A stretch of DNA of 64,000 nt from Thermoanaerobaculia bacterium (GCA_035544735.1 DATKCD010000013.1:3412-67411), one strand, 5' to 3'. Shown: positions 6,670 to 63,642, counted from the first letter of the stretch. Notes: generated by a model not told the origin, from the sequence alone. Program-made: numbers and translations.

Positions 6670-7749
6670 GCCGAATCCGATGAAGTTCGGCTCGGGGCGA
6701 AGGGCGATGCCGAATCGGTTCGCGACGGTCCGCTGGATCTCGGCGACGAGGCGCAGGACGTCGGTCGCCTTTCCCCCTCCACGATTGACGATCGCGAGCG
6801 TGTGCTTGGTGGAAAGCCCGACGGCTCCTGCGCCGTATCCCTTGTGGAATCCCGCCTGCTCGATGAGCCACGCAGCCGAGAGCTTGACCCGCCCCTCTCC
6901 GGTGGGCCACGAGGGGATGCGGTCGGCTCGGAGCGACGGCTCGCCGTCGACGGCCCGCCGGAGGAAGGTGTGGAGCTCTTCGGTCGAGATGATGGGATTC
7001 ATGAAGAACGAGCCGTCGCTCCGGGTGTCGGCGTCGGCGGGGTCGAGAACCATTCCCTTGCGCCGGCGGATCTCTAGCACCGCCTCGCGGACCTGAGCGA
7101 GGGTCGGCGCCCCGCCGAAGCGCTCGTCCACGAGCGCCCGCAGCTCGGGATATCGAAGCGCCGCCGCCCCGCCCGGCTGGAGCCGATACGTCACGCTCAA
7201 CACGACGAGCTCGTCGCGGCCCTCCGCCTTGAACATGCTGTCGCGATAGGTGAAGCGGCACTGCGCGTTCGAGAGGGATCGGACCCGTCCCGAGGCGACC
7301 GAGAGCACCTCGACTTCGACGACGCTCTCCGCGACCTCCTGACCGTAGGCGCCGACGTTCTGGATCGGCGTCGCACCGACCGAGCCGGGGATGCCGGAGA
7401 GGGCCTCGAAGCCGGCCCAGCCGCGCTCGCAGGCGAGCGCGGCGATCCGGTCCCACTCCTCGCCGGCGCCGACGCGCAGCCGGACCGCATCCCCCTCGCG
7501 CCCGGTGTCGATCCCGCGCAGCGCGTTGCGCAGGACCAGGCCGTCGAACCCCTCGTCGGCGATCAGGACATTGCTCCCGCCGCCGAGAAGAAACAGCGGC
7601 ACTCCCGCCCTTCCCGCCCACTCGATCCCGGCCCGCACCTGATCGAGAGAAGCCCCCTCGAGAAACCAGCGCGCCGGGCCGCCGATGCCGATCGTCGTCA
7701 TCGGCGCGAGCGGTACGTTCTCGCGCATGCCTGGAAGGAGATCGATCAT
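6661..7749 (-). CDS. murB: UDP-N-acetylenolpyruvoylglucosamine reductase
   Basis: FAD-binding N-domain (GIGGPARWF...LGGGSNVL) and MurB C-domain. Start trimmed to MIDLLPGMRENVPL. The 848-aa ORF overlapping in another frame is an artefact. Confidence 0.85.
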   Translation of the reverse strand: MIDLLPGMRENVPLAPMTTIGIGGPARWFLEGASLDQVRAGIEWAGRAGVPLFLLGGGSNVLIADEGFDGLVLRNALRGIDTGREGDAVRLRVGAGEEWDRIAALACERGWAGFEALSGIPGSVGATPIQNVGAYGQEVAESVVEVEVLSVASGRVRSLSNAQCRFTYRDSMFKAEGRDELVVLSVTYRLQPGGAAALRYPELRALVDERFGGAPTLAQVREAVLEIRRRKGMVLDPADADTRSDGSFFMNPIISTEELHTFLRRAVDGEPSLRADRIPSWPTGEGRVKLSAAWLIEQAGFHKGYGAGAVGLSTKHTLAIVNRGGGKATDVLRLVAEIQRTVANRFGIALRPEPNFIGFGGV

Positions 7750-8000
7750 CGGCGGGACTCGCCGGCGCCGGACCCTGCGCGCCGCGACCCGCGAAGTATC
7801 TCCACAATTCGGCGCGATGCCAAGCCGCCGGCGACCCCCCGCGGATCTCCGCGCCGAAGCCGGAATGAGGCGTTTGCTGGCGATCTGATCCGCAGTCAGG
7901 ACAGACGGACTCGTCCGCACGGCGGCATTGGGCACGCGTTTTGTGTTGCCAATGGGTTGCTCCGCGATCCTGCGGAGCGACGACAAGGAGGAAAGAAGTC

Positions 8001-8438
8001 ATGAGCTTCAATCGAATGATGCGGTTCACTGCCGTAACGGCGGTACTCGTGCTGGCAGTCGCGTGCAGCACCACCACCAGCGACGACGTGACCCGTGCCG
8101 ATGTGATGCAGCCGGCGACGGCCGAGACGCACGACCCGATCGGGCAACCGCCCCGGGTCGTGAGCGACATCGGTGCGACCCATCCCTCGAGCGTGACCGG
8201 AGGAACAGGGAACGTGAATGCCGGCGGCACCAACACGAACCTGAACCAGCCGCCACCCGCCGATGGAACGGCCACCGTGACGACCAGCGAGGTCGTCGTA
8301 ACCGAGGCGCCGGCGCTGATCGAGCCTGCACCGGTCGTGGTCGAGGAGAGGACGGTCATCGAGCGGAGGACCGTCATCGACGAGCCCGCGCCCGTCGTCA
8401 CGACGGTCGAGACCCGCACGCTGATGCAGAAGGACTGA
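8001..8438 (+). CDS. Hypothetical lipoprotein, T/P/V-rich and likely disordered
   Basis: AAGGAGG 6 nt upstream of ATG 8001. Lipobox LAVAC. Confidence 0.55.
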   Translation: MSFNRMMRFTAVTAVLVLAVACSTTTSDDVTRADVMQPATAETHDPIGQPPRVVSDIGATHPSSVTGGTGNVNAGGTNTNLNQPPPADGTATVTTSEVVVTEAPALIEPAPVVVEERTVIERRTVIDEPAPVVTTVETRTLMQKD

Positions 8439-8473
8439 CGCATTCAAACGGGTTTCTGCGGAGCGGGTCCGGT

Positions 8474-9418
8474 TCACCGGGCCCGCTTCGCATTCTCCGC
8501 CAGTACGGTCCCCTGGTTCGCTTCGCACGCCCTCGCCTCGAGCCAGGCCGCGAACCTCCGGAACAGCTCTTCGGCCTCGGCCGGCGTGAAGTCGTGTCGC
8601 GAGCGTTCCGCCACCCACCCCTGGTCGGTCAGCTCCAGACGAGCATCCTCCGTGAGGATCTGGATCAGCATCGTCGAGATCACGAATCGGACCTCGCCTC
8701 CGTCGCGCTCGATCGCCGCACGCGAACACGACCCGAGCTCGACCGACGATCCATGCATCAGCGTCTCGAGATGGCTGTCCTTCCGGCGAAGCAGGCGGAC
8801 TGCGCTCGCCTCCGGATCGAAGCCTCGGGATGCGTTGACGATCCCGAGCGTCGGAGGAAGGAAGAGCGGATCGCCCGGCTCGCGATCGAGCTCGCGATAG
8901 ATCCCGGGGCGGAACAGCCGTCCGGCGTTGCAGGCGGAAACGTAGGCCCGACCGACTCCGGCCTTCTCCAGCGTTTCCTGCAGGCCGCCGATCGAGATGT
9001 ACGAGCGGAGGTCGCCCGGATCCTTCGATCGCTGGAGCTTCAGCCCGTGGCCGTTCGTGCCGTGCGTCTCGAGGACGACTCCGTCGATCGGGCGCCCGGG
9101 CGAGAGGACATTCGCCCGCGCGATCGACCGGGCGACCTCACGCCAGTCGGACGCTTCGAAATAGACGAAGCCGAGCCCCTCGTAGAATCGTCGATTTCCC
9201 GGAAGCGCCAGATCCGGCGTGAACACGATCGCCGTCCCCGAGCCGATCGCCTCGATCGCCGGCCGCGGGGGGGGGACGGTCTCCGGCTCCGCACCGGCGA
9301 GGGGGCGCGGCGGCGGGAGCGCCGGTGCCGGATCGGGGCGGGTCAGCAGCAGCGCGAGAACGACGAGGCCGAACGCCAGCAGGACGGCGGCAATGATGCG
9401 GGAGCGGCGAGCTTCCAT
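8474..9418 (-). CDS. Membrane-anchored protein with putative clan-CD (caspase/legumain-like) cysteine-peptidase core
   Basis: 314 aa. N-terminal TM helix. VVLETHGTNGHG...(about 45 aa)...AYVSACNAG matches the His-Gly...Ala-Cys dyad spacing of clan CD. C-terminal 120 aa has no recognised domain. Confidence 0.55.
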   Translation of the reverse strand: MEARRSRIIAAVLLAFGLVVLALLLTRPDPAPALPPPRPLAGAEPETVPPPRPAIEAIGSGTAIVFTPDLALPGNRRFYEGLGFVYFEASDWREVARSIARANVLSPGRPIDGVVLETHGTNGHGLKLQRSKDPGDLRSYISIGGLQETLEKAGVGRAYVSACNAGRLFRPGIYRELDREPGDPLFLPPTLGIVNASRGFDPEASAVRLLRRKDSHLETLMHGSSVELGSCSRAAIERDGGEVRFVISTMLIQILTEDARLELTDQGWVAERSRHDFTPAEAEELFRRFAAWLEARACEANQGTVLAENAKRAR

Positions 9419-9470
9419 CGAGCAGACACGACTGCAAGGAGTTCGCCGGGCGGCCCGCCGGGCCGGATTC

Positions 9471-9938
9471 TCAGAGCAGCTCTTCGAACCGGGTCAGCGC
9501 CTTCCGTCCCGCGCCGTGCGCTCCGGCGACCGGAGGCGACTGCAGATATCTGCCGTAGGTTCCCGCGAAGGGGTGGGCCGGATCTCCGCTGCCGAGCATC
9601 TGATGGAGGTCCTTCACGAGATTCCGGTACGGAGCCCGATCGGTCTCGGTGGCGAGAAGCTCGTCGAGCTGAGCCACGGCGCCGCTCAGCGGACGCAGCC
9701 ATGCGAACGCCGGATCGTTCACGAGGAGGTCGAACATCCGGACCGGGCTCTGCGGTCCGTGAGTCCGCTCGTATTCGCCGCGGACTTCTCCGAGAAGTGC
9801 ACGGTGGAGTGCGAGCAGTGCCGAGGAGAGCGCGCGGGCCCTGCGCGCGAACTCCGGCTCCTGGGCCGGCCTCGGCATTTTCTGATACAGCGGTTTCAAA
9901 GGGAAGCCGTCCCGTCCTCCTCGAATCGTCGATTGCAA
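9471..9938 (-). CDS. Hypothetical protein (helical); possibly co-transcribed with 8474-9418
   Basis: 155 aa ORF. Alternative start MPRPAQ at 9878. G/C-biased third positions. Confidence 0.4.
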   Translation of the reverse strand: MQSTIRGGRDGFPLKPLYQKMPRPAQEPEFARRARALSSALLALHRALLGEVRGEYERTHGPQSPVRMFDLLVNDPAFAWLRPLSGAVAQLDELLATETDRAPYRNLVKDLHQMLGSGDPAHPFAGTYGRYLQSPPVAGAHGAGRKALTRFEELL

Positions 9939-53886: not shown

Positions 53887-55218
53887 TCACATTCCCCTGC
53901 GGCCGCGGACGACCAGGCGCACGGGGGTGCCGACCAGCCCGAGGGCTTCGCGGAACTGGTTCTCGAGGAACCTCTTGTAGGAGAAGTGGAGCGGCTGTTC
54001 GACGTTCGAGAAGAGGGCGATGGTCGGCGGGCCGGAACGGAGCTGAGTCGCGTAGTAGAACTTCCGCCCCTTTCCGTCGACGGAGGGGGGGGAGTGCTTC
54101 GCGACGGCCGCCGCGAGGATCTGGTTGAGCTCGGAGGTCCGGAACCTCGCCCGATGGGACTCGGCGATCCGATCGATCTGGTCGAACAGCTTGTCGACGC
54201 GGCGGCCCGTTTTCGCGGAGATGAACTCGACCGGGGCGTACTGGAGGAACTTGAGCTTCGAGCGAATCGTCTCTTCGACGCGCTTCGCGGTGTCCTGCTC
54301 CGCCTCGACCAGGTCCCACTTGTTGACCAGGATGAGCGCTCCCTTGCCTTCCTCCTCGGCGTAGCCCGCGACCGTCGCGTCCTGCGCGGTGACGCCCTCG
54401 ACGGCGTCGATCATGACCAGCGCCACCTCGGAGCGGCGGACCGCCTTCAGCGCGGAGATCACGGCGAGCTTCTCCGCCCCGTCGGTCGTCTTCCCCTTGC
54501 GGCGGATCCCGGCCGTGTCGATGACGAGATAGCGCCGGCCCCCTCGCTCGATCCACTCGTCGACGGCGTCGCGCGTCGTGCCGGCGATCGAGGAGACCAC
54601 CACCCGCTCGCTCCCCGCCAGCCGGTTCAGCAGCGACGATTTACCGACGTTCGGCCGACCGATGATCGACAGCCTGACCGGGCTCGTCTCGTCCCCCGCT
54701 TCGGCCTCGTCGGGATCGTGCGGCAGCCGCTTCGCCAGCTCCTGCTCGAGCTCGTCGAGATTGATCCCGTGCTCCGCCGAGACGGCGATGAGACGCTCGA
54801 ATCCGAGCGCGTAGAACTCTCCCGCCGAATCCCGCGCGCTCCCAGTGTCGATCTTGTTGACCACTACGACGACCTTCTCCGCGTGCGGGCGCAGCTCGGT
54901 CGCGATCTCTTCGTCCTCCGGCATCGAGCCGGCGGTCCCGTCGACCACGAACACGATGACGCTCGCCGTCTCGATCGCGCGCAACGCCTGCTCCCGGATC
55001 TCACCGGCGAACGCCGACAGCGGGTTCTGCCCGTATTCCAGCCCCCCCGTATCGATCAGCTCGAAGCTCCGGCCGTCGGCGAGCGAGGAGAGGGCCGAGA
55101 TCCGGTCGCGCGTCATTCCGGGCATGTCGTGGATGAGCGCCCTCCGCCGCCCCGCGAGGCGGTTGAAGAGCGTCGACTTTCCGACGTTCGGTCTCCCGAC
55201 GATGACGACTCGATTCAT
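53887..55218 (-). CDS. der: Ribosome-biogenesis GTPase Der (EngA), tandem GTPase domains + KH-like domain
   Basis: Start refined to MNRVVIVGRPNVGKS. Second GD IGRPNVGKSS. DTAG and NKxD in both domains. Confidence 0.95.
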   Translation of the reverse strand: MNRVVIVGRPNVGKSTLFNRLAGRRRALIHDMPGMTRDRISALSSLADGRSFELIDTGGLEYGQNPLSAFAGEIREQALRAIETASVIVFVVDGTAGSMPEDEEIATELRPHAEKVVVVVNKIDTGSARDSAGEFYALGFERLIAVSAEHGINLDELEQELAKRLPHDPDEAEAGDETSPVRLSIIGRPNVGKSSLLNRLAGSERVVVSSIAGTTRDAVDEWIERGGRRYLVIDTAGIRRKGKTTDGAEKLAVISALKAVRRSEVALVMIDAVEGVTAQDATVAGYAEEEGKGALILVNKWDLVEAEQDTAKRVEETIRSKLKFLQYAPVEFISAKTGRRVDKLFDQIDRIAESHRARFRTSELNQILAAAVAKHSPPSVDGKGRKFYYATQLRSGPPTIALFSNVEQPLHFSYKRFLENQFREALGLVGTPVRLVVRGRRGM

Positions 55219-55320
55219 GACGTTCACGCCGGAGACATCATCGCATTCCGGAACGCCCCTCGACACGATGCCGTCTGCGCGCACCTCCTTCCCTGTCGCA
55301 CGCTTCGCCTCCGGACGCGA

Positions 55321-56661
55321 TCAGAGCGCGACCGCTCCCCAGTACAGCGCGATCGCGATCAGCGCGCCGGCGAGGGTGTTGAAGAAATTGAGCGCGCCGT
55401 TGGGAACGGGGACGCTCCTGTTCCGATTCCAGCTCCCCGCCACGCTCTCGAGCCACGAGGCGAGGATCGCGGCCGTGGTGACGATGAGCGTGCCCGCACC
55501 GAAGCTGACCGCGATCCGATCGTGTGCGAGGGCGACGCCGAGCGCGCCAACCGCCCCTCCCGCCAGCGCCCCCGCCAGCGTCCCCTCCAGCGAGATCGCC
55601 CCCTCGGTGCCTCGCGGAACCTGGCGGAGGCTCAGCGGAAGGAACGTCCTTCGCCCGAACAGCTGGCCGATCTCGGAGGCGGTGGTGTCGGCCGTCGCGG
55701 TGGCGAGCGCGGCAATCGCCCCGAGCCAGAGCGCTCGCAGCGACCCCGCTTCAGCTGCGATCAGGAGCGAGACGATCGCCGCCACCCCGACGTTCGACCA
55801 GGCATGCGAGAACCCCCTCCGCCCGCCCCGCTCCTGGGCGAGCCCGGCCGCCTCCTTCTTCTGCCATCCGAGTCGCGTCACCGCCGTGCCGACGACGAAG
55901 AACGCGACCAGCACCACGTAGAGCTCCCAGCCGGCGAATGCGATCAGGATCGCACCGAGCGCGAACCCTCCTGCCGCGCCGGAGAGGGTCACGCTCCGTC
56001 CGAGCCACCCTCCCAGAGCGAGCGCACCGTTCGCTCCGAGCCAGAGCAACTCCGTCCCGCCGAGACGCGGCTCCGGCTCGCGCGAGATCCGCGTCAGCGC
56101 CGCCAGCAGAAGGGCTCCGACCAGCGGCACCACGAAGTTGTCGTCGAGACGCAGATCGAGACTCTCCGCGATCGCGCAGGCGATCGCCGTCACGACCGCC
56201 AGGGAGATCCAGCCGGCCGCGTACGGAGGATCGGGCTGCACGAACGAGGCGACCTGCCACGCCGCGACGCTCCCGGCCAGAACGAACGTCAGCGAGCCGG
56301 CGACGCTCTTCGAGCGGTTCCACGGCAGTCGCGGTCCCCCGATCAGCCGCCCCGCCAGGGTCGCTCCCCCGTCGCCGAACGCCATGATCGCCCACACCGC
56401 CGCGGCGACCCCGGGATCGCCGGGGAACAGGACGATCAGGAAGAACACCGCAGCGGGATAGAGGACGATTCCGAGGTCCGTGCCGCGCGGGCTGCGCGCG
56501 ATGCGCGTGCCGAACAGGTGCGGGAGCACGAGCCAGTTGTAGAGAAACGCCGCGGCGGCCAGGGCTGCCGCCTGCCAGGGACTCAACCATCGGAGCAGCA
56601 GAGCGCAGAACCCGAACGCCACGTGCACCAGCTTCCGGAGGACCTCCCGATCGAGCGCCAT
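55321..56661 (-). CDS. Fusion of polyprenol/phytol-kinase-like (CTP-dependent kinase) domain with DUF92 (TMEM19-like) membrane domain
   Basis: Start refined to MALDREVLRKLVHV. N-terminal part has FGDGGATLAG...NRSKSVAGS (dolichol/phytol-kinase-like). C-terminal half is polytopic DUF92-like. Confidence 0.6.
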   Translation of the reverse strand: MALDREVLRKLVHVAFGFCALLLRWLSPWQAAALAAAAFLYNWLVLPHLFGTRIARSPRGTDLGIVLYPAAVFFLIVLFPGDPGVAAAVWAIMAFGDGGATLAGRLIGGPRLPWNRSKSVAGSLTFVLAGSVAAWQVASFVQPDPPYAAGWISLAVVTAIACAIAESLDLRLDDNFVVPLVGALLLAALTRISREPEPRLGGTELLWLGANGALALGGWLGRSVTLSGAAGGFALGAILIAFAGWELYVVLVAFFVVGTAVTRLGWQKKEAAGLAQERGGRRGFSHAWSNVGVAAIVSLLIAAEAGSLRALWLGAIAALATATADTTASEIGQLFGRRTFLPLSLRQVPRGTEGAISLEGTLAGALAGGAVGALGVALAHDRIAVSFGAGTLIVTTAAILASWLESVAGSWNRNRSVPVPNGALNFFNTLAGALIAIALYWGAVAL

Positions 56662-56776
56662 CCGCGCGAGTCTAGGGGTCGGGCAGACCCGGAGTCCAGA
56701 AGAGTCGGGGTTCGGGAGTCGGCAGTCTCGCGGTTCCCCGCCCGGCTCCAGACTCCAGACTCTACAATGGGCGGCG

Positions 56777-58210
56777 ATGGCCGAATCCGAGAGCCCCGCC
56801 GAGCCCCGGCCGCTGCTGTCGGTCATCGTTCCCTGCTACAACGAGCGGTCGACGGTGGCGGAGCTTCTGAGACGCGTGAGGAAGGTCCCGGTCGACAAGG
56901 AGATCATCGTCGTCGACGACCAGTCGCGCGACGGCTCGCGCGACATCGTGGCCGCCCTGGCGGCGGAGTGGCCCGAGCTGCGCCAGGAGATCCAGCCGCG
57001 AAACATGGGAAAGGGGGCCGCGCTCCGGCGCGGGATCGAGCTCGCGCGCGGCGAGATCGTCATCATTCAGGATGCGGATCTCGAGTACGACCCGGAGGAG
57101 TACCCGAAGCTGATCCAGCCGATCGTCGACGGGCACGCGGACGTCGTCTATGGTTCGCGATTCGAAGGCTACCCGCGACGCGTCATGCTCTACTGGCACA
57201 GGCTCGGCAACGTTTTTCTCACATTCCTCTCGAACGCGACGACCAACCTCGACCTGACCGACATGGAGACGTGCTACAAGGTCTTCCGCCGCGAGGTGAT
57301 CCAGTCGATCCGGCTCAACTCGAACCGCTTCGGTTTCGAGCCCGAGGTCACGGCGAAGGTCGCGAAGCGCGGGTACCGGATCTACGAGGTCCCGATCGCC
57401 TACTACGGCCGCGACTACTGGGAAGGAAAGAAGATCAACTGGAAGGACGGCTTCTCGGCGATCTGGACGATCCTGCGGTACGGCCTGTTCGAAGATCCCG
57501 CGAGCGAGCCGGCCGGCTATCTCACGCTGCGCCGCAAGTCGACCCTCCGGAATTATCACGAATGGATCTGGGACCGGATCCGGCCGCACGTGGGGCAGCG
57601 CGTGCTGGAGGTCGGAGCGGGGAGCGGGAGTCTGACGCGCCTGCTCTACGGGCGCGATCTGGTGGTCGCGACCGAGAAGGAGACGCCGTATCTGGACCGT
57701 CTGACCAACGCATTCCGGCGGCGGCCGGGGATCGAAGTCGAGGCGCTCGACCTCGATGCGCCGGGAGACCTCTCGCGCTTCATCGAGCGTCGCTTCGACA
57801 CGATCCTGCTGGTCAACGTCCTCGAGCACCTCGGCGACGACGCCGGCGCGCTCCGGCGCGCCCATTCGATCCTCGAGCCGGGGGGAACGGTGATCGTTTA
57901 CGTGCCGGGAGACAGCCGGCTGTTCGGACCTCTCGATCGCGGCGTGGGGCACCACCGGCGCTACGACCCCGAGCAGCTCCGGCAGCTTTTGTCGGAGGCG
58001 GGCTTCTCGACGATCGAGCTCGGATGGCAGAACCGGGCGGGCCGCATCGGATGGAGGGTCAACTCCGGGCTGCTGCGGCGGCGCGAGCTGCCGTCGACCC
58101 AGTCGAAGATGTTCGATCGTCTGGTGCCGCTGCTGCGGCGGCTGGAGGGGGAGCGGCCGCGCAGGGGGCTCAGCCTCGTCGCGGTGGGTCGCAAGGGAGA
58201 ATCGCGATGA
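56777..58210 (+). CDS. Family-2 glycosyltransferase (polyprenyl-phosphate mannosyl/glucosyl-transferase, Dpm1-like) fused to a class-I SAM methyltransferase domain
   Basis: LLSVIVPCYNE...VVDDQSRDGS...IQDADLEYDP (GT-A DXD). Then LEVGAGSGSLT...LLVNVLEHL (MTase motifs I and post-I). Confidence 0.85.
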   Translation: MAESESPAEPRPLLSVIVPCYNERSTVAELLRRVRKVPVDKEIIVVDDQSRDGSRDIVAALAAEWPELRQEIQPRNMGKGAALRRGIELARGEIVIIQDADLEYDPEEYPKLIQPIVDGHADVVYGSRFEGYPRRVMLYWHRLGNVFLTFLSNATTNLDLTDMETCYKVFRREVIQSIRLNSNRFGFEPEVTAKVAKRGYRIYEVPIAYYGRDYWEGKKINWKDGFSAIWTILRYGLFEDPASEPAGYLTLRRKSTLRNYHEWIWDRIRPHVGQRVLEVGAGSGSLTRLLYGRDLVVATEKETPYLDRLTNAFRRRPGIEVEALDLDAPGDLSRFIERRFDTILLVNVLEHLGDDAGALRRAHSILEPGGTVIVYVPGDSRLFGPLDRGVGHHRRYDPEQLRQLLSEAGFSTIELGWQNRAGRIGWRVNSGLLRRRELPSTQSKMFDRLVPLLRRLEGERPRRGLSLVAVGRKGESR

Positions 58211-59226
58211 GCGAGCGCGCGGCGATCCTGCTCGCGGGGGGGGCCGGCACGCGCCTCTGGCCTCTGAGCACCGACGAGCGGCCCAAGCAGTTCCTCCGGA
58301 TCTTCGAAGGACGCTCGCTCCTGCAGATCGCCTTCTCCCGCATGCGGAACCTCCTTCCGGCCGACCGGATCTTCGTCGCGGCCCACGAGCGCCATCGCGA
58401 AGCGATCTTCGCCGAGCTGCCCGAGCTCCCCCCCGACAACGTCCTGCTCGAGCCCGAGCGGCGGAACACCGCGCCCGCGATCGCCGTCTCCTGCTCGCAG
58501 GTCGCGCGCACCCTCGCCGGCGATCCGGTCATCGGGATCTTCCCCTCCGATCACTTCGTCGCGGACGAGGACGCATTCGTCCGCACCGTCGACCGCGCCT
58601 TCCGCTTCGCCGCGACCGAGCCGTTTCTCGTCACGATCGGAATCGATCCCGATCATCCCAACACCGGCTTCGGATATCTCGAGCTCGGAGAGACGATGGG
58701 GGACGAAGTCATCCGGCTGCTCCGCTTCGTCGAGAAGCCGACGCGGGAGCGCGCCGAGGAGTTCGTCCGGAGCGGGCGGTTCGTCTGGAACGGAGGGATG
58801 TTCGTCTGGCGCCGGAGCACCTTCGAGAACGCGCTGGAGGCGACCGCTCCGGAGATCGCGGCGATCGCCCGGAAGCTCGCCGGCGCTTCGGCAGCCGAGC
58901 GGAAGACCCTCTACGCGCAGATGCCTTCGATCTCGATCGACTTCGCCGTGATGGAGAAGGCGCCGAACGTCGCGACCGTCCGGGGATCGTTCGGCTGGTC
59001 CGACGTCGGGTCGTGGAAGGCCGTCGCGAAGATCGTCGGGCAGGGACTGGAGGAGGGAGTGATCCGCGAAGAGTCGCCCGGCTCGCTGGTGCACGCCCGA
59101 GGCGACCGCCCCGTCATCCTCATCGGCGTGCCCAACATCGCCGTCGTCGACGTCCCCGAAGGACTCCTCGTCATCGACCTCGACCGATCCGAGCACCTCG
59201 CCTCGGTCCTCAAGAAGCATGAGTAA
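58207..59226 (+). CDS. manC: Mannose-1-phosphate guanylyltransferase (GDP-mannose pyrophosphorylase)
   Basis: ATG at 58207 overlaps the upstream stop (ATGA). LLAGGAGTRLWPLS nucleotidyl-transferase motif. The listed 1746-aa ORF is an artefact. Confidence 0.85.
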   Translation: MSERAAILLAGGAGTRLWPLSTDERPKQFLRIFEGRSLLQIAFSRMRNLLPADRIFVAAHERHREAIFAELPELPPDNVLLEPERRNTAPAIAVSCSQVARTLAGDPVIGIFPSDHFVADEDAFVRTVDRAFRFAATEPFLVTIGIDPDHPNTGFGYLELGETMGDEVIRLLRFVEKPTRERAEEFVRSGRFVWNGGMFVWRRSTFENALEATAPEIAAIARKLAGASAAERKTLYAQMPSISIDFAVMEKAPNVATVRGSFGWSDVGSWKAVAKIVGQGLEEGVIREESPGSLVHARGDRPVILIGVPNIAVVDVPEGLLVIDLDRSEHLASVLKKHE

Positions 59227-59347
59227 GGCATTGATGATTGATGATTGATGATTGATGATTGACGGCTCGATCATCGAGCATCAATCATAGATCATCAATC
59301 AAAAATGCCTTTCAATCATCAATCATAGATCATAGATCATCAATGCC
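59227..59347. repeat. TGATTGA-heptamer inverted-repeat element G
   Basis: GGCATTGA(TGATTGA)x4...central palindrome GCTCGATCATCGAGC...TCAATCA/TAGATCA units...TCATCAATGCC. Terminal inverted repeats GGCATTGATGA/TCATCAATGCC. The right repeat contains the ATG (59343-59345) of the next gene. Confidence 0.85.
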
Positions 59348-60188
59348 TTCTGGCGTGTTCGACATTCACCTTCACGTGCAGCCCTGGGAGATGCTGCGGG
59401 ACGAAGTGCGGCCGCTCATCGACGACGAGTCGCACCGCGGCGCCGCGGAGATTCTCGCCTCGGCTCCGCGCCTCCTCGACTGGATGGATAAGGAAGGGAT
59501 CGCGCGCGCCTGCTGCATCAACTACGTCTCCCCCGACGTGATGGGATTCCCCGCCGCGGTGAACGACTGGATCGCGACCTTCACGCGCGCCCATCGCGAC
59601 CGCCTCCTCCCCGTCGGCTCGGTCCATCCGAAGACCACTCCCGACCTCCGCTCCGAGATCCTCCGCCTGCTCGACCTCGGCATGCGGATGATCAAGATCC
59701 ATCCGCCGCATCAGCTCTTCGCCGCGAATGCCTACCGCTCCGGCCTGCCGGGCCTCGCCGCCGTCTACGCCGAATGCGAGACGCGCGGAGTCCCGGTGAT
59801 GTTCCATACCGGAACGTCGATCTTTCCGGGAGCGCGGAACGTCTACGCCGACCCGATGCCGATCGACGACGTCGCCGTCGATTTTCCGCGCCTCACGATC
59901 ATCCTGGCGCATGCCGGCAGACCTCTCTACGGCGACACCGCCTTCTTCCTCGTGCGGAGGCATCGCAACGTGTTCCTCGATCTGTCCGGCATCCCTCCGA
60001 AAGCGATCCCGCGATACGTCCCGCGCCTGGCCCACATTTCGGAGCGGGTCCTCTGGGGAACCGACTGGCCCTCGCCCGGCGTGGTCTCGCCCCGCGCGAA
60101 CGTCGAGCAGTTCCGCGCCCTCGGTCTCGGAGAAGAAGTCGAGCGCAAGATCCTCGGCGAAAACGCCGCCCTGTTGTTCCCGACGTAG
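59343..60188 (+). CDS. Amidohydrolase-2-family TIM-barrel metal-dependent hydrolase
   Basis: Start refined to MPSGVFDIHLHVQ (H-x-H metal motif at the N-terminus). HTG and later His/Asp (GTDWP). Confidence 0.7.
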   Translation: MPSGVFDIHLHVQPWEMLRDEVRPLIDDESHRGAAEILASAPRLLDWMDKEGIARACCINYVSPDVMGFPAAVNDWIATFTRAHRDRLLPVGSVHPKTTPDLRSEILRLLDLGMRMIKIHPPHQLFAANAYRSGLPGLAAVYAECETRGVPVMFHTGTSIFPGARNVYADPMPIDDVAVDFPRLTIILAHAGRPLYGDTAFFLVRRHRNVFLDLSGIPPKAIPRYVPRLAHISERVLWGTDWPSPGVVSPRANVEQFRALGLGEEVERKILGENAALLFPT

Positions 60189-60267
60189 CTTCCGAGCTCG
60201 CCCGTCGTCTCCGGCCGCTCCGCCGGCGGTCGATTGGCAGGGGGCTTGCGTCCTCAGCCGTTCGCAG

Positions 60268-61407
60268 ATGACGGCAAAGCCTTCCATTCGCATCGGGATC
60301 TTCGGGTCGTACGGCGGCCTCAACCTCGGCGACGAGGCGATCCTCCATTCGATGCTCCGCCAGATTCGTGAATCGGTCGAGGCGGAGCTGACGGTCTTCA
60401 CGCGCGACGTCGAGGACACCGAGAGGCGGCACGGCGTGCGCGGTCTCGCCCCCGCGAACCTCTCGCGCGACGAAGCACGGGCCGAGATCCAGAAGCTCGA
60501 TCTGCTGATCCTCGGCGGCGGCGGGATCCTCTACGATCGGGATGCCGAGCTGTACCTGCGCGAAGTGAAGCTCGCCCACGAGGTCGGCGTCCCGGTGGCG
60601 GTGTACGCGATCAGCGCCGGACCGCTGAAGAAGCAGGCGATGCGCGATCTGGTCCGCGATGCGCTCGGCCCGGTCGCGCTGATCACCGTCCGCGACAAGA
60701 GGGCGCGCCAGCTTCTCGAGGAGATCGGCATCGAGAAGGAGATCACGGTCACCGCCGACCCCGCCCTTCTGCTCGAGCCTGAGCCGCTGCCGGAGGGAGC
60801 CTTCGAAGCCGAGGGGCTGCCGACCGACGTGCCGATCGTCGGATTCTCCGTACGCGAGCCCGGTCCGGCAGCGCCCGACATCGACGTCGACCACTACCAT
60901 TCATTGATCGCCAACGCCGCTGACTACATGGTCTCGCGTCTGAACGCCTACATCGTCTTCGTGCCGATGGAGCGGCGCAAGATGGACATGCAGCAGAGCC
61001 ACGCCGTGGTGTCGCTGATGAAGAACGCCGATCGGGCGACCGTGCTCAAGGGAGACTATTCGGCGGGACAGCTCCTCGCTCTGGTCGGCCGCATGAAACT
61101 CGCCGTCGGCATGCGGCTGCACTTCCTCATCTTCGCCGCACTACAGCGGGTTCCCTTCGTTCCCCTCCCCTACGCGACGAAGGTCGCCGGATTCATCGAG
61201 GAGATGGGGATGGAGATGCCGCCGCTTCACGACGTCAACGCGGGCGTGCTGATCGCGGCCATCGATCGGAGCTGGGACTATCGGAAGACGCTCGAGAAGC
61301 GGATCGACGAGCACCTCCCCCGGATGCAGGAGAGCGCGCGCACGACGCACCGGCTGCTTCTCGATCTGATCGACCGAATCGAGCCCGAGGCGCGAAAGGA
61401 GGCCTGA
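60268..61407 (+). CDS. Polysaccharide pyruvyl transferase family protein (CsaB/WcaK-like)
   Basis: Start refined to MTAKPSIRIGIFGSYGGLNLGDEAIL. LILGGGG...MRLH. Confidence 0.75.
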   Translation: MTAKPSIRIGIFGSYGGLNLGDEAILHSMLRQIRESVEAELTVFTRDVEDTERRHGVRGLAPANLSRDEARAEIQKLDLLILGGGGILYDRDAELYLREVKLAHEVGVPVAVYAISAGPLKKQAMRDLVRDALGPVALITVRDKRARQLLEEIGIEKEITVTADPALLLEPEPLPEGAFEAEGLPTDVPIVGFSVREPGPAAPDIDVDHYHSLIANAADYMVSRLNAYIVFVPMERRKMDMQQSHAVVSLMKNADRATVLKGDYSAGQLLALVGRMKLAVGMRLHFLIFAALQRVPFVPLPYATKVAGFIEEMGMEMPPLHDVNAGVLIAAIDRSWDYRKTLEKRIDEHLPRMQESARTTHRLLLDLIDRIEPEARKEA

Positions 61408-61495: not shown

Positions 61496-62821
61496 GTGGT
61501 CGGCGGAGGTCCCGCCGGACTCGGGGCGGCCGTCGGCGCGGCCGAGGCCGGCGCGGACGTGATCCTCGCGGAGCGTTACGGCTTCCTCGGCGGCAATGCG
61601 ACCGCGGCACTCGTGATGCCGCTCATGTCGTTCTTCACCCAGAAGCCTTCGGCGGGCCAGGCGCCGCCCGACAGCCTGATGCCGTCGGACCACGGCCCCG
61701 GCGATCCGGTGATCGCCGGGGTGCTCCGGCGGCTTCTCGAACGGCTCATCCGCAGCGGCGGCGCGATTCCTCCCGGATCGCGCACCGGCTACACGGTCCC
61801 CTTCGACCCCGAAGTGTTCAAGCTCGTCGCGCTCGAGATGCTCGACGAGTGCGGCGTGAGATTTCTGCTCCACGCGTTCGCCAGCGACGTGGTTCGGACC
61901 GGCGGAAGGGTCGAGGGGGCGGTCTTCGAGACCAAATCGGGGCCGGTCGTGATCCGCGCGCGATGCATCGTCGACGCCACCGGCGACGGCGACCTCGCCG
62001 CCCGCGCCGGCGCCCCCTTCGAGCTCGGACGGCTCGAGGACGGTCTGGTGCAGCCGATGACGCTGATGTTCCGGATCGTCGACTTCCAGCGCCAGGCGTT
62101 CGAGTCGTACATCCGGGAACATCCCGATCAGTGGCGCTCGGTGCACGGGCTGTGGGACCTGATCGGCCGCGCAGCCGAGGCGGGCGAGCTCGACCTCGCC
62201 CGCGAGGACATCCTCTTCTTCGGCACTCCGCACGAGCGCGAGATCGCGGTCAACAGCACGCGCGTGACCCGCGTGCTCGGCACCGACGTCTGGGACCTCA
62301 GTTATGCCGAGTGGGAGAGCCGCCGCCAGCTCCGCCAGATCGCCGCCTTCTTCCGCCGCTACGTCCCCGGATTCGAGGAGGCTTACGTCGCCCAGAGCGG
62401 GGTCCAGATCGGCGTTCGCGAGACGCGGCGGATCGTCGGCGAGTATCAGCTCACCGCCGAGGATCTGCTCTCCGCCCGAAAGTTTCCCGACGTGATCGCG
62501 CGCGGCTCGTATCCGGTCGACATCCACAATCCGCGGGGCAAGGGAACCCTTCTGCGCCGCATCCCGCCCGGAGAGGCCTACGACATCCCTCTGCGGAGCC
62601 TCATTCCCCAGCGTGTCGACCATCTGCTCGTCTCGGGACGATGCATCTCCGGAACGCATGAAGCGCATTCGTCGTACCGCGTCATGCCGATCGCGATGGC
62701 GACCGGTCACGCGGCCGGCGTCTGCGCCGCCCTCGCCTCGGGAAGCCGCAGGCCTCCCCGCGACGTCCCTGCCGAAGAGGTGCAGGCCGAGCTGCGCCGG
62801 CAGGGCGCGAACCTCGGCTGA
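61496..62821 (+). CDS. FAD-dependent oxidoreductase (FAD_oxidored / PF12831-like)
   Basis: GGGPAGLGAA dinucleotide-binding loop. GDGD and a C-terminal FAD-contact region. The only canonical start is GTG 61496, although the motif's beta-strand (ADVLVV) is encoded upstream in frame. Confidence 0.7.
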   Translation: MVGGGPAGLGAAVGAAEAGADVILAERYGFLGGNATAALVMPLMSFFTQKPSAGQAPPDSLMPSDHGPGDPVIAGVLRRLLERLIRSGGAIPPGSRTGYTVPFDPEVFKLVALEMLDECGVRFLLHAFASDVVRTGGRVEGAVFETKSGPVVIRARCIVDATGDGDLAARAGAPFELGRLEDGLVQPMTLMFRIVDFQRQAFESYIREHPDQWRSVHGLWDLIGRAAEAGELDLAREDILFFGTPHEREIAVNSTRVTRVLGTDVWDLSYAEWESRRQLRQIAAFFRRYVPGFEEAYVAQSGVQIGVRETRRIVGEYQLTAEDLLSARKFPDVIARGSYPVDIHNPRGKGTLLRRIPPGEAYDIPLRSLIPQRVDHLLVSGRCISGTHEAHSSYRVMPIAMATGHAAGVCAALASGSRRPPRDVPAEEVQAELRRQGANLG

Positions 62822-62871: not shown

Positions 62872-63642
62872 ATGGTTCGCAATCCCGATCCCGCAGGACT
62901 CGAAGAGCTCGCCCGCGCGCTGCCGCGCAACGTATCCGCCGCCGAGAGGATCGCGAGCGCGGCGGGGGGAATCGCCCTGGTCGCCTGGGGGCTCACGCAT
63001 CGCTCGGTGCCGGCGCGCCTCGGCGCGCTCGCCGGCCTCGTCCTCGTCATCCGCGGGGCCAGCGGCTTCTGCCCCGTCCGTCAGGCGCTCTCCTCGTCCG
63101 ACGAGGAGGGGTTCGGCCAGGCGCGCTCGGCCGTCCTCGAGCACGACGAAGGCCTCACCGTCGAGACCGCGGTGATCATCGAGCGCCCCGCCGAGGAGAT
63201 CTACTCCTTCTGGCGGCGGCTCGAGAACCTTCCTCTCGTCATGGAGCACCTCGAATCGGTCCGGGAGATCGACGCAACGCGCTCGCACTGGATCGCGAAG
63301 GGGCCGGCGCGGAGGTCCGTCGAGTGGGACGCCGAGATCATCAACGACATTCCGGGAGAGATGATCGGCTGGCGCTCGCTTCCCGACTCCGAGGTGGCCA
63401 ATGCCGGCTCGGTGCATTTCTCCCCGTTGACCGGGGGCCGCGGCACGGAGGTGCGGGTGCGGCTGCGCTACGAGCCGAAGTTCGGGCGCGCGGGGGCACT
63501 GGTCGCGAAGCTGATCCGCGAGGAGCCGGGCCAGCAGATCGCGCGCGAGCTGCGGCGGCTCAAGGCGAGGATGGAAGGGAGCGGACGGACGGCGTCGGAG
63601 GCGGTCGCGGCCTCACGGGACGACCGCGCAGCCCGGCTGTAG
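62872..63642 (+). CDS. DUF2892 (YgaP-like) membrane segment + SRPBCC (polyketide-cyclase/START-like) domain protein
   Basis: 256 aa. GFCPV motif region. C-terminal helix-grip SRPBCC pattern. Confidence 0.65.
   Translation: MVRNPDPAGLEELARALPRNVSAAERIASAAGGIALVAWGLTHRSVPARLGALAGLVLVIRGASGFCPVRQALSSSDEEGFGQARSAVLEHDEGLTVETAVIIERPAEEIYSFWRRLENLPLVMEHLESVREIDATRSHWIAKGPARRSVEWDAEIINDIPGEMIGWRSLPDSEVANAGSVHFSPLTGGRGTEVRVRLRYEPKFGRAGALVAKLIREEPGQQIARELRRLKARMEGSGRTASEAVAASRDDRAARL

Follow-up and report, generated by a model that had tools for sequence, protein, structure and literature searches.

A DPMS-class glycosyltransferase fused to a methyltransferase and coupled to a GDP-mannose pyrophosphorylase, next to a prenol-kinase-like DUF92 fusion, in a Thermoanaerobaculia genome

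We analysed a 64,000-nucleotide stretch (the window) of a Thermoanaerobaculia (Acidobacteriota) metagenome-assembled genome (GCA_035544735.1, DATKCD010000013.1:3412-67411; ~68% G+C; identical proteins are listed by NCBI for a Thermoanaerobaculia bacterium MAG), whose open reading frames (ORFs) were scanned with Pfam and NCBIfam; the genes concerned are labelled g1 to g7 and der (Table 1). Gene g2, encoding a family 2 glycosyltransferase (GT2) fused to a methyltransferase (MT), is coupled to g3, encoding a GDP-mannose pyrophosphorylase (GMP), and the g2-g3 operon probably makes a methylated mannose-lipid, of which we infer both the acceptor and the methylation target. An earlier note on this DNA had read g1, g2, g3 and g5 as one coherent cluster forming a complete route to a lipid-linked mannose donor. 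The ORFs and domains that it named were all recovered, including a nearby amidohydrolase (g4, PF04909) and FAD oxidoreductase (g6, PF12831), but a complete route was not confirmed, no phosphomannomutase or phosphomannose isomerase being present in the cluster. What we observed directly are the identities of the domains, their homology at the level of classes, the coupling of g2 to g3 and the patterns of synteny. We consider that there is about an even chance that the interval consists of three juxtaposed units (g1; g2-g3; g5-g6) and not of one pathway, with substrates and products that we infer for each unit.

The N-terminal domain of g2 matched Glycos_transf_2 (PF00535, 1.8e-35). A phmmer search against PDB sequences recovered the Pyrococcus furiosus dolichyl phosphate mannose synthase (PfDPMS, 5mlz) at 1.1e-19 over aa 14-227, followed by ArnC (3.6e-17) and GtrB (2.3e-10). 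Weaker matches to glucosyl-3-phosphoglycerate synthases (~5e-7) and a mannosyl-3-phosphoglycerate synthase (2e-4) covered the N-terminal half only. When the AlphaFold model of g2 (pLDDT 72) was used in a Foldseek search, ranks 1-25 were all occupied by DPMS, ArnC or GtrB. The closest relatives of the g2 glycosyltransferase (GT) domain, by sequence and predicted fold, are thus polyprenyl-phosphate glycosyltransferases of the DPMS/ArnC/GtrB class, and g2 groups with enzymes that use lipid-phosphate acceptors. The score of g2 was below all NCBIfam equivalog cutoffs (AglJ, 125 versus 325 bits; PpgS, 78 versus 370; dolichyl-P hexose transferase, 71 versus 375; ArnC, 70 versus 529).

We then mapped the PfDPMS residues described in PMC5526996 to g2 through the PDB sequence alignment. 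The g2 sequence D99-A-D101-L-E-Y aligns with PfDPMS 89-DADLQH-94, and conservation extends from E12 (E23 in g2) and D39 (D48) through the DAD motif (D99/D101) to R117 (R128), F177 (F185) and R202 (R212). Helices are predicted in g2 at aa 142-155 and 222-235, the positions of the PfDPMS interface helices IFH1 and IFH2, with pLDDT <50 there, and the equivalent aromatic-rich helices are invariant across g2 homologues. An amphipathic character of these helices is not claimed, as their helical hydrophobic moments are not outstanding. No transmembrane (TM) segment was detected in g2 (maximal 19-residue hydropathy, 0.86), in which respect it resembles human DPM1 and the catalytic domain of mycobacterial Ppm1. 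PfDPMS truncated of its TM domain was still membrane-bound and active (PMC5526996). Proteins of ~240-270 aa consisting of the GT2 part only, with ~55-63% identity to the g2 GT domain, were seen in Terriglobia, a cyanobacterium (Pelatocladus), a gammaproteobacterium and Planctomycetota (loci L059, L061-L083); these stop right past the IFH2-like helix, and the genes around them are not conserved.

The C-terminal domain of g2, an intact class I methyltransferase, matched Methyltransf_23 (5.5e-14) as well as Methyltransf_11/12/25, so that the Dpm1-like GT2-MT fusion of the earlier note is borne out by both halves of the protein. The VLEVGAGSG S-adenosylmethionine (SAM) motif is invariant or nearly so across g2 homologues, other positions are invariant as well, and the mean column identity is 73%. 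The structural neighbours of this half are TleD, AtmM and RebM. Literature searches for a methyltransferase fused to a DPM1-like GT2 found nothing and, to our knowledge, bacteria are not known to contain a methyl-mannosyl-phospho-prenol, whether as a lipid-linked donor or as a glycolipid.

The identity of g3 is clear. Its Pfam match is NTP_transferase, TIGR01479 matched over the GMP part (1.2e-73), and the characterised Thermotoga maritima GMP (2x5s) matched over the full length (1.7e-72, aa 6-337); by its sequence, g3 is a genuine GDP-mannose pyrophosphorylase. The end of g2 and the beginning of g3 share the 4 bp of an ATGA (cgcgATGAgcg), in agreement with what had been noted before. Moreover, g3 adjoins g2 on the same strand in 23/23 related loci, and in-frame GT2-MT-GMP triple fusions occur in two independent metagenome sources (P0186, 745 aa; P0206, 734 aa). 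The overlap, the co-orientation and the triple fusions together make GDP-mannose a well-supported candidate for the g2 donor.

A plausible sequence of events would therefore begin with g3 supplying GDP-mannose to g2. The anchor-less GT-A domain of g2, resembling a DPMS catalytic domain with its interface helices, would move mannose onto polyprenyl phosphate at the membrane surface, and the fused methyltransferase would then methylate the product, most likely on a mannose hydroxyl. The synthesis of envelope glycans would in this way be provided with a (methyl)mannosyl-phospho-polyprenol donor. If g2 truly makes such a methylated mannosyl-phospho-polyprenol, it would open a new branch within the DPMS/GtrB/ArnC class, one working without a membrane anchor and modifying its own product.

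Several observations weigh against this assignment. The model of g2 has pLDDT <50 at aa 128-167 and 210-255, which is the acceptor region. Two of the three phosphate-binding residues of PfDPMS are replaced, R131 by H141 (with R142 adjacent) and S135 by N145, and K178 corresponds to G186 (with R184 nearby, as in ArnC). The window has no flippase or GT-C consumer of lipid-linked mannose among the few families tested. A YfhO-like GT-C neighbour considered in paralogous loci (L011-13, L047) was dropped for want of Pfam support. Finally, distant GT2-MT homologues (38-42% identity) precede Wzm (ABC2_membrane) and Wzt (Wzt_C) genes in 6-7 loci.

This last arrangement bears on a different role, in which g2 would be a capping or terminating enzyme, placing a last mannose on a nascent polysaccharide linked to undecaprenyl diphosphate and methylating that mannose. 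It would then be a counterpart of the GT/MT terminators in ABC-transporter-dependent pathways for O-antigen or S-layer glycans. The carbohydrate-binding modules of Wzt recognise modifications at the glycan terminus, and there are known GT/MT terminators made of several modules (PMC11231755). Besides the Wzm/Wzt_C-linked loci (L040, L042, L044, L052, L054, L056, L058), a Wzz/GNVR tyrosine-kinase-like gene lies upstream of distant GT2-MT fusions in 7 loci, which suggests that part of the GT2-MT family caps exported glycans. However, within the few families tested, the window has no Wzm, Wzt or Wzz gene and no other glycosyltransferase, its g2 belongs to another clade (at least 65% identity) than the Wzm/Wzt-linked loci, and the closest relatives of g2 in sequence and fold are exclusively polyprenyl-phosphate glycosyltransferases. 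We thus regard capping as improbable for g2 itself.

We consider it very improbable that g2-g3 make a soluble methylated mannoside, such as a compatible solute or a small-molecule glycoside, in place of a lipid. The lack of a TM segment, the low-scoring matches with glucosyl- and mannosyl-3-phosphoglycerate synthases (5e-7 to 2e-4) and the resemblance of the methyltransferase to the natural-product sugar methyltransferases RebM and AtmM would all fit a soluble product. Yet the similarity to these synthases concerns the nucleotide-binding half only and is ~12 orders of magnitude weaker than that to DPMS, the aromatic-rich equivalents of IFH1 and IFH2 are invariant, and no phosphatase or solute-pathway gene is found nearby. 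The methylated mannose-lipid remains our preferred product of g2-g3.

The GT2-MT architecture is widespread. A GTDB scan recovered full-length fusions with 38-55% identity in Bryobacterales, Rokubacteria, Myxococcota, Planctomycetota, Verrucomicrobiota, Bacteroidota, Elusimicrobia and Actinomycetota. Proteins of the g2 type, which span many phyla, are currently annotated merely as "bifunctional glycosyltransferase/methyltransferase". Over a distance of 10 kb, the 54 distant GT2-MT loci carry neither g1 nor GMP nor the amidohydrolase.

We next consider g1, which is a polytopic membrane protein. Its C-terminal half matched DUF92 (PF01940) at E=1.1e-43, a family that we take to correspond to COG1836; the score of g1 against TIGR00297 (151.5 bits) was below the cutoff (205.85). 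The COG1836-family protein VTE6 (At1g78620) is the plant phytyl-phosphate kinase, which converts the product of VTE5 to phytyl diphosphate (PMC6601204, PMC9782597), a role whose prediction rested on comparing bacterial genomes for their COG1836 genes (review PMC9782597). The suggestion that DUF92 would acquire a functional context through the g1 fusion is not supported, this context being already known from plants. We found no literature linking TMEM19 with a phytyl kinase.

The N-terminal 205 residues of g1 had no Pfam match even at E<=10, and a profile built from them had no match among PDB sequences. This domain is strongly conserved across homologues of ~450 aa. The profile collected 7200 relatives out of 1.84 billion representatives, of which 55 short or standalone ones were scanned with Pfam. 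PF01148 (CTP_transf_1) was the sole recurrent family besides DUF92, found in 7/55 relatives (best, 1.1e-4), and one standalone relative of 199 aa carries the IMG name "dolichol kinase". The domain has a CdsA/CarS-type membrane fold, with fold comparison matching CarS and CdsA. Four motifs are invariant (RK..H; FGDG.AT..G; LPWN..KS..G; E....DDN..P), and we presume, as a lead and not as a test, that they resemble those of VTE5 and dolichol kinases. Taken at the superfamily level, a polyprenol/phytol-kinase-like nature of this domain is supported by its sequence relatives, and no unrelated family was assigned to it. In the kinase-DUF92 fusion proposed in the earlier note, DUF92 therefore stands firmly, and the kinase-like half stands at the superfamily level, through its relatives only. 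Comparison of the two g1 halves by hhalign (P=0.015, probability 3%) was too weak to claim homology, even though the motifs GDG.A/ADT.A, K-S-x-x-G/E-G and E...N fall in register; a distant homology of the halves is suggestive at most. The N-terminal half of the ~450-aa "DUF92 domain-containing proteins" could be annotated as a CTP_transf_1-superfamily prenol-kinase-like domain.

In the proposed mechanism, g1 would combine two distantly related domains of the CTP-transferase superfamily in one polytopic protein. The COG0170-like N-terminal domain would convert a free prenol to prenyl monophosphate, and the VTE6-type DUF92 domain would convert this monophosphate to prenyl diphosphate, so that the tandem would act as a salvage or activation route supplying diphosphate-using enzymes. 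UbiA prenyltransferases are users of prenyl diphosphate, and Dpm1-type enzymes require polyprenyl monophosphate. A VTE5-like/VTE6-like tandem is therefore expected to yield prenyl diphosphate and not the substrate of a Dpm1-type enzyme, which speaks against g1 as the supplier of polyprenyl monophosphate that it had been taken for.

The genomic context of more distant g1-type proteins points in the same direction. Both domains are fused in 84/85 metagenome loci. We examined a distant set of 59 loci with ~38-47% identity to g1 (within L108-L167). A short-chain dehydrogenase/reductase (SDR) gene (Epimerase/3Beta_HSD/NAD_binding_4) lies immediately upstream of the fusion in 40/40 loci with enough flank, and a UbiA prenyltransferase gene immediately downstream in 30/41. 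This order is expected if the g1-type fusion supplies prenyl diphosphate to a prenyltransferase, and SDR-fusion-UbiA looks like a route by which diderm bacteria form an alcohol, phosphorylate it twice and then transfer the prenyl group. The operon thus points to a prenol-activation pathway open to testing. LptD was often seen a few kb upstream of this arrangement. No SDR or UbiA gene was found near g1 in the window or its close relatives. There, the same-strand g1-der adjacency is kept in all close relatives with enough contig (L001, L002, L085-L089); in L087 the two genes, together at 7001-9744, overlap by 4 bp. A squalene/phytoene synthase gene was seen ~5 kb from g1 in L087.

Are g1 and g2-g3 nevertheless parts of one system? 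The divergent arrangement of g1 and g2-g3 is limited to a single clade of relatives, in which it is conserved down to ~45-50% g1 identity, with a spacer of 28-309 bp in relatives, and is present in 17/49 metagenome loci with enough upstream sequence. Weighing against a strict separation of the two units, g1 accompanies 22/23 core-type g2-g3 loci with enough flank, so that a functional link is possible, and the g1-g2 adjacency survives the loss of der in L102 and L106. However, der and yebC are also kept in the clade block carrying these genes, so that the adjacency may be mere clade-level synteny. Moreover, g1 is separate and divergently transcribed, and in L087 (52% identity) and L088 (69% identity) g1-der stands with no g2-g3 beside it, which does not fit the single coherent cluster of the earlier note. 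As synteny alone is insufficient to establish a functional g1/g2-g3 link in this clade, we regard such a link as doubtful.

The fullest version of such a link is one dedicated pathway, in which g1 would make polyprenyl phosphate, g2 would mannosylate and methylate it, and g5 would pyruvylate the product. Apart from the conserved adjacency and the near-constant presence of g1 at core-type loci, this would be served by the first g1 kinase step, which would yield a prenyl phosphate. The fused DUF92/VTE6-type domain should, however, push the product to the diphosphate, the same type of fusion is elsewhere paired with SDR and UbiA genes, and the distant GT2-MT loci have neither g1 nor GMP; to these objections are added the loci with g1 but without g2-g3, the synteny of der and yebC, and the distribution of g5 described below. 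One dedicated pathway is thus unlikely. A variant in which g1 and g2-g3 form one system, the kinase activating a specific free prenol from which the anchor-less g2, with its own methyltransferase and in some relatives its own GDP-mannose synthase, would build methyl-mannosyl-phospho-prenol, appears to us quite improbable. We therefore keep g1 and g2-g3 as separate units.

The third unit lies downstream. The putative pyruvyl transferase g5 scored below cutoff against TIGR03609 (CsaB; 176.8 versus 213.1 bits) and has homologues with 57-66% identity in several phyla. It is absent from every related g2-g3 locus, which speaks against its proposed membership of the pathway. The g5-g6 pair recurs, adjacent or overlapping and with ~58-61% identity, in Bordetella sp. 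BOR01 (L170 6001-8566) and in Phycisphaerae (L171 6001-8554); in Bordetella it lies among TctC, LysR and CoA-transferase genes, a catabolic-looking context without glycan genes. Since g5 is absent from the relatives of g2-g3 and is paired with a PF12831 flavoprotein in unrelated contexts, g5-g6 forms a module of its own, and g5-g6(-g7) may be inherited separately. This suggests that the g5 subfamily of "pyruvyl transferases" has a non-polysaccharide role. The best PDB match of g4 is the uncharacterised BB4693 (3irs). In relatives, g4 is on the opposite strand in 16/23 cases, absent in 5/23 and on the same strand in 2/23, and is thus a conserved neighbour that is usually outside the operon.

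Two intergenic regions were also inspected. A consensus promoter scan of the g1/g2 spacer called no promoter. The sequence TACAAT at 56763-56768 precedes the g2 ATG by 8 bp. It could serve as a -10 element, in which case the g2 mRNA would have a very short leader or none. The interval 59225-59349, between the g3 stop and the g4 start, contains an AT-rich heptad repeat, (ATTGATG)x5, then two imperfect inverted copies, with 38-nt arms that are 84-89% complementary. The predicted RNA hairpin has dG = -57 kcal/mol (z = -6.2 versus shuffles), and, as there are two alternative right arms, two hairpins that exclude each other could form. The window has no second copy of this repeat, none of the 89 loci compared contains it, and an Rfam scan of the window gave no match.

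Table 1. Genes, domains and spacer of the interval, in window coordinates
Feature	Position	Strand	Description
der (EngA GTPase)	53887-55284	-	TIGR03594 E=7.5e-162; immediately downstream of g1
g1	55321-56661	-	446 aa; Pfam match DUF92 only, aa 213-415
g1 C-terminal domain, aa 206-446	55321-56046	-	DUF92 PF01940
g1 N-terminal domain, aa 1-205	56047-56661	-	putative remote CTP_transf_1/COG0170-type (phytol/dolichol-kinase-like) membrane domain
g1/g2 divergent intergenic region, 115 bp	56662-56776		
g2	56777-58210	+	477 aa; Glycos_transf_2 aa 15-177, class I methyltransferase aa 271-414
g2 GT2 domain, aa 14-237	56816-57487	+	DPMS/ArnC/GtrB-class GT-A, DAD motif D99-A-D101; last element the predicted interface helix, aa 222-235
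g2 class I SAM-dependent methyltransferase domain, aa ~258-477	57548-58210	+	
g3 GDP-mannose pyrophosphorylase (mannose-1-phosphate guanylyltransferase)	58207-59226	+	339 aa; without phosphomannose isomerase (PMI) domain
g4 Amidohydro_2 hydrolase	59343-60188	+	PF04909 5.6e-35
g5 PS_pyruv_trans	60268-61407	+	PF04230 2.7e-41
g6 FAD_oxidored	61496-62821	+	PF12831 2e-129
g7 YgaP-like TM + SRPBCC (Polyketide_cyc) domain	62872-63642	+	directly 3' of g6

The components of all three units are new variants of already known kinds of enzymes, and existing knowledge is not overturned. For g1, the nearest known system is the phytol salvage pair of plants and cyanobacteria, VTE5 (phytol kinase, COG0170) and VTE6, in which the same two families act consecutively to convert a prenol to the prenyl diphosphate used by a UbiA-type prenyltransferase. 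In contrast to this pair, both activities would reside in one polypeptide in g1, its N-terminal domain is too diverged for Pfam, and in the clade of the window the UbiA/SDR neighbours are replaced by der and g2-g3. Moreover, the host is a non-phototrophic acidobacterium, and the prenol is therefore unlikely to be phytol derived from chlorophyll. The g1-type fusion would thus carry the prenol-salvage logic of plant VTE5/VTE6 into non-phototrophic soil bacteria.

The GT-A fold and DAD motif of g2 are shared with the DPMS family (5mlz, human DPM1, mycobacterial Ppm1, GtrB and ArnC), from which g2 differs by a C-terminal class I methyltransferase in place of TM helices or a partner subunit, some of its relatives being additionally fused to GMP. 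The combination of a glycosyltransferase with a SAM methyltransferase is also found in the terminators Klebsiella pneumoniae O7 ORF6 and Escherichia coli O9a WbdD (PMC11231755), but g2 has neither a coiled-coil ruler nor a kinase, lacks accompanying exporter or polymerase genes, and carries a GT of the DPMS class. The g5 protein shares PF04230 and TIGR03609 similarity with CsaB-type polysaccharide pyruvyl transferases, but differs from them in its constant partner, a PF12831 flavoprotein, and in the surroundings of the pair, which are not those of glycan synthesis (L170, L171). Finally, g3 is similar to the mannose-1-phosphate guanylyltransferase of T. maritima in its size and in the absence of a PMI domain, and differs from it in being translationally coupled to, or in relatives fused with, the GT2-MT protein.

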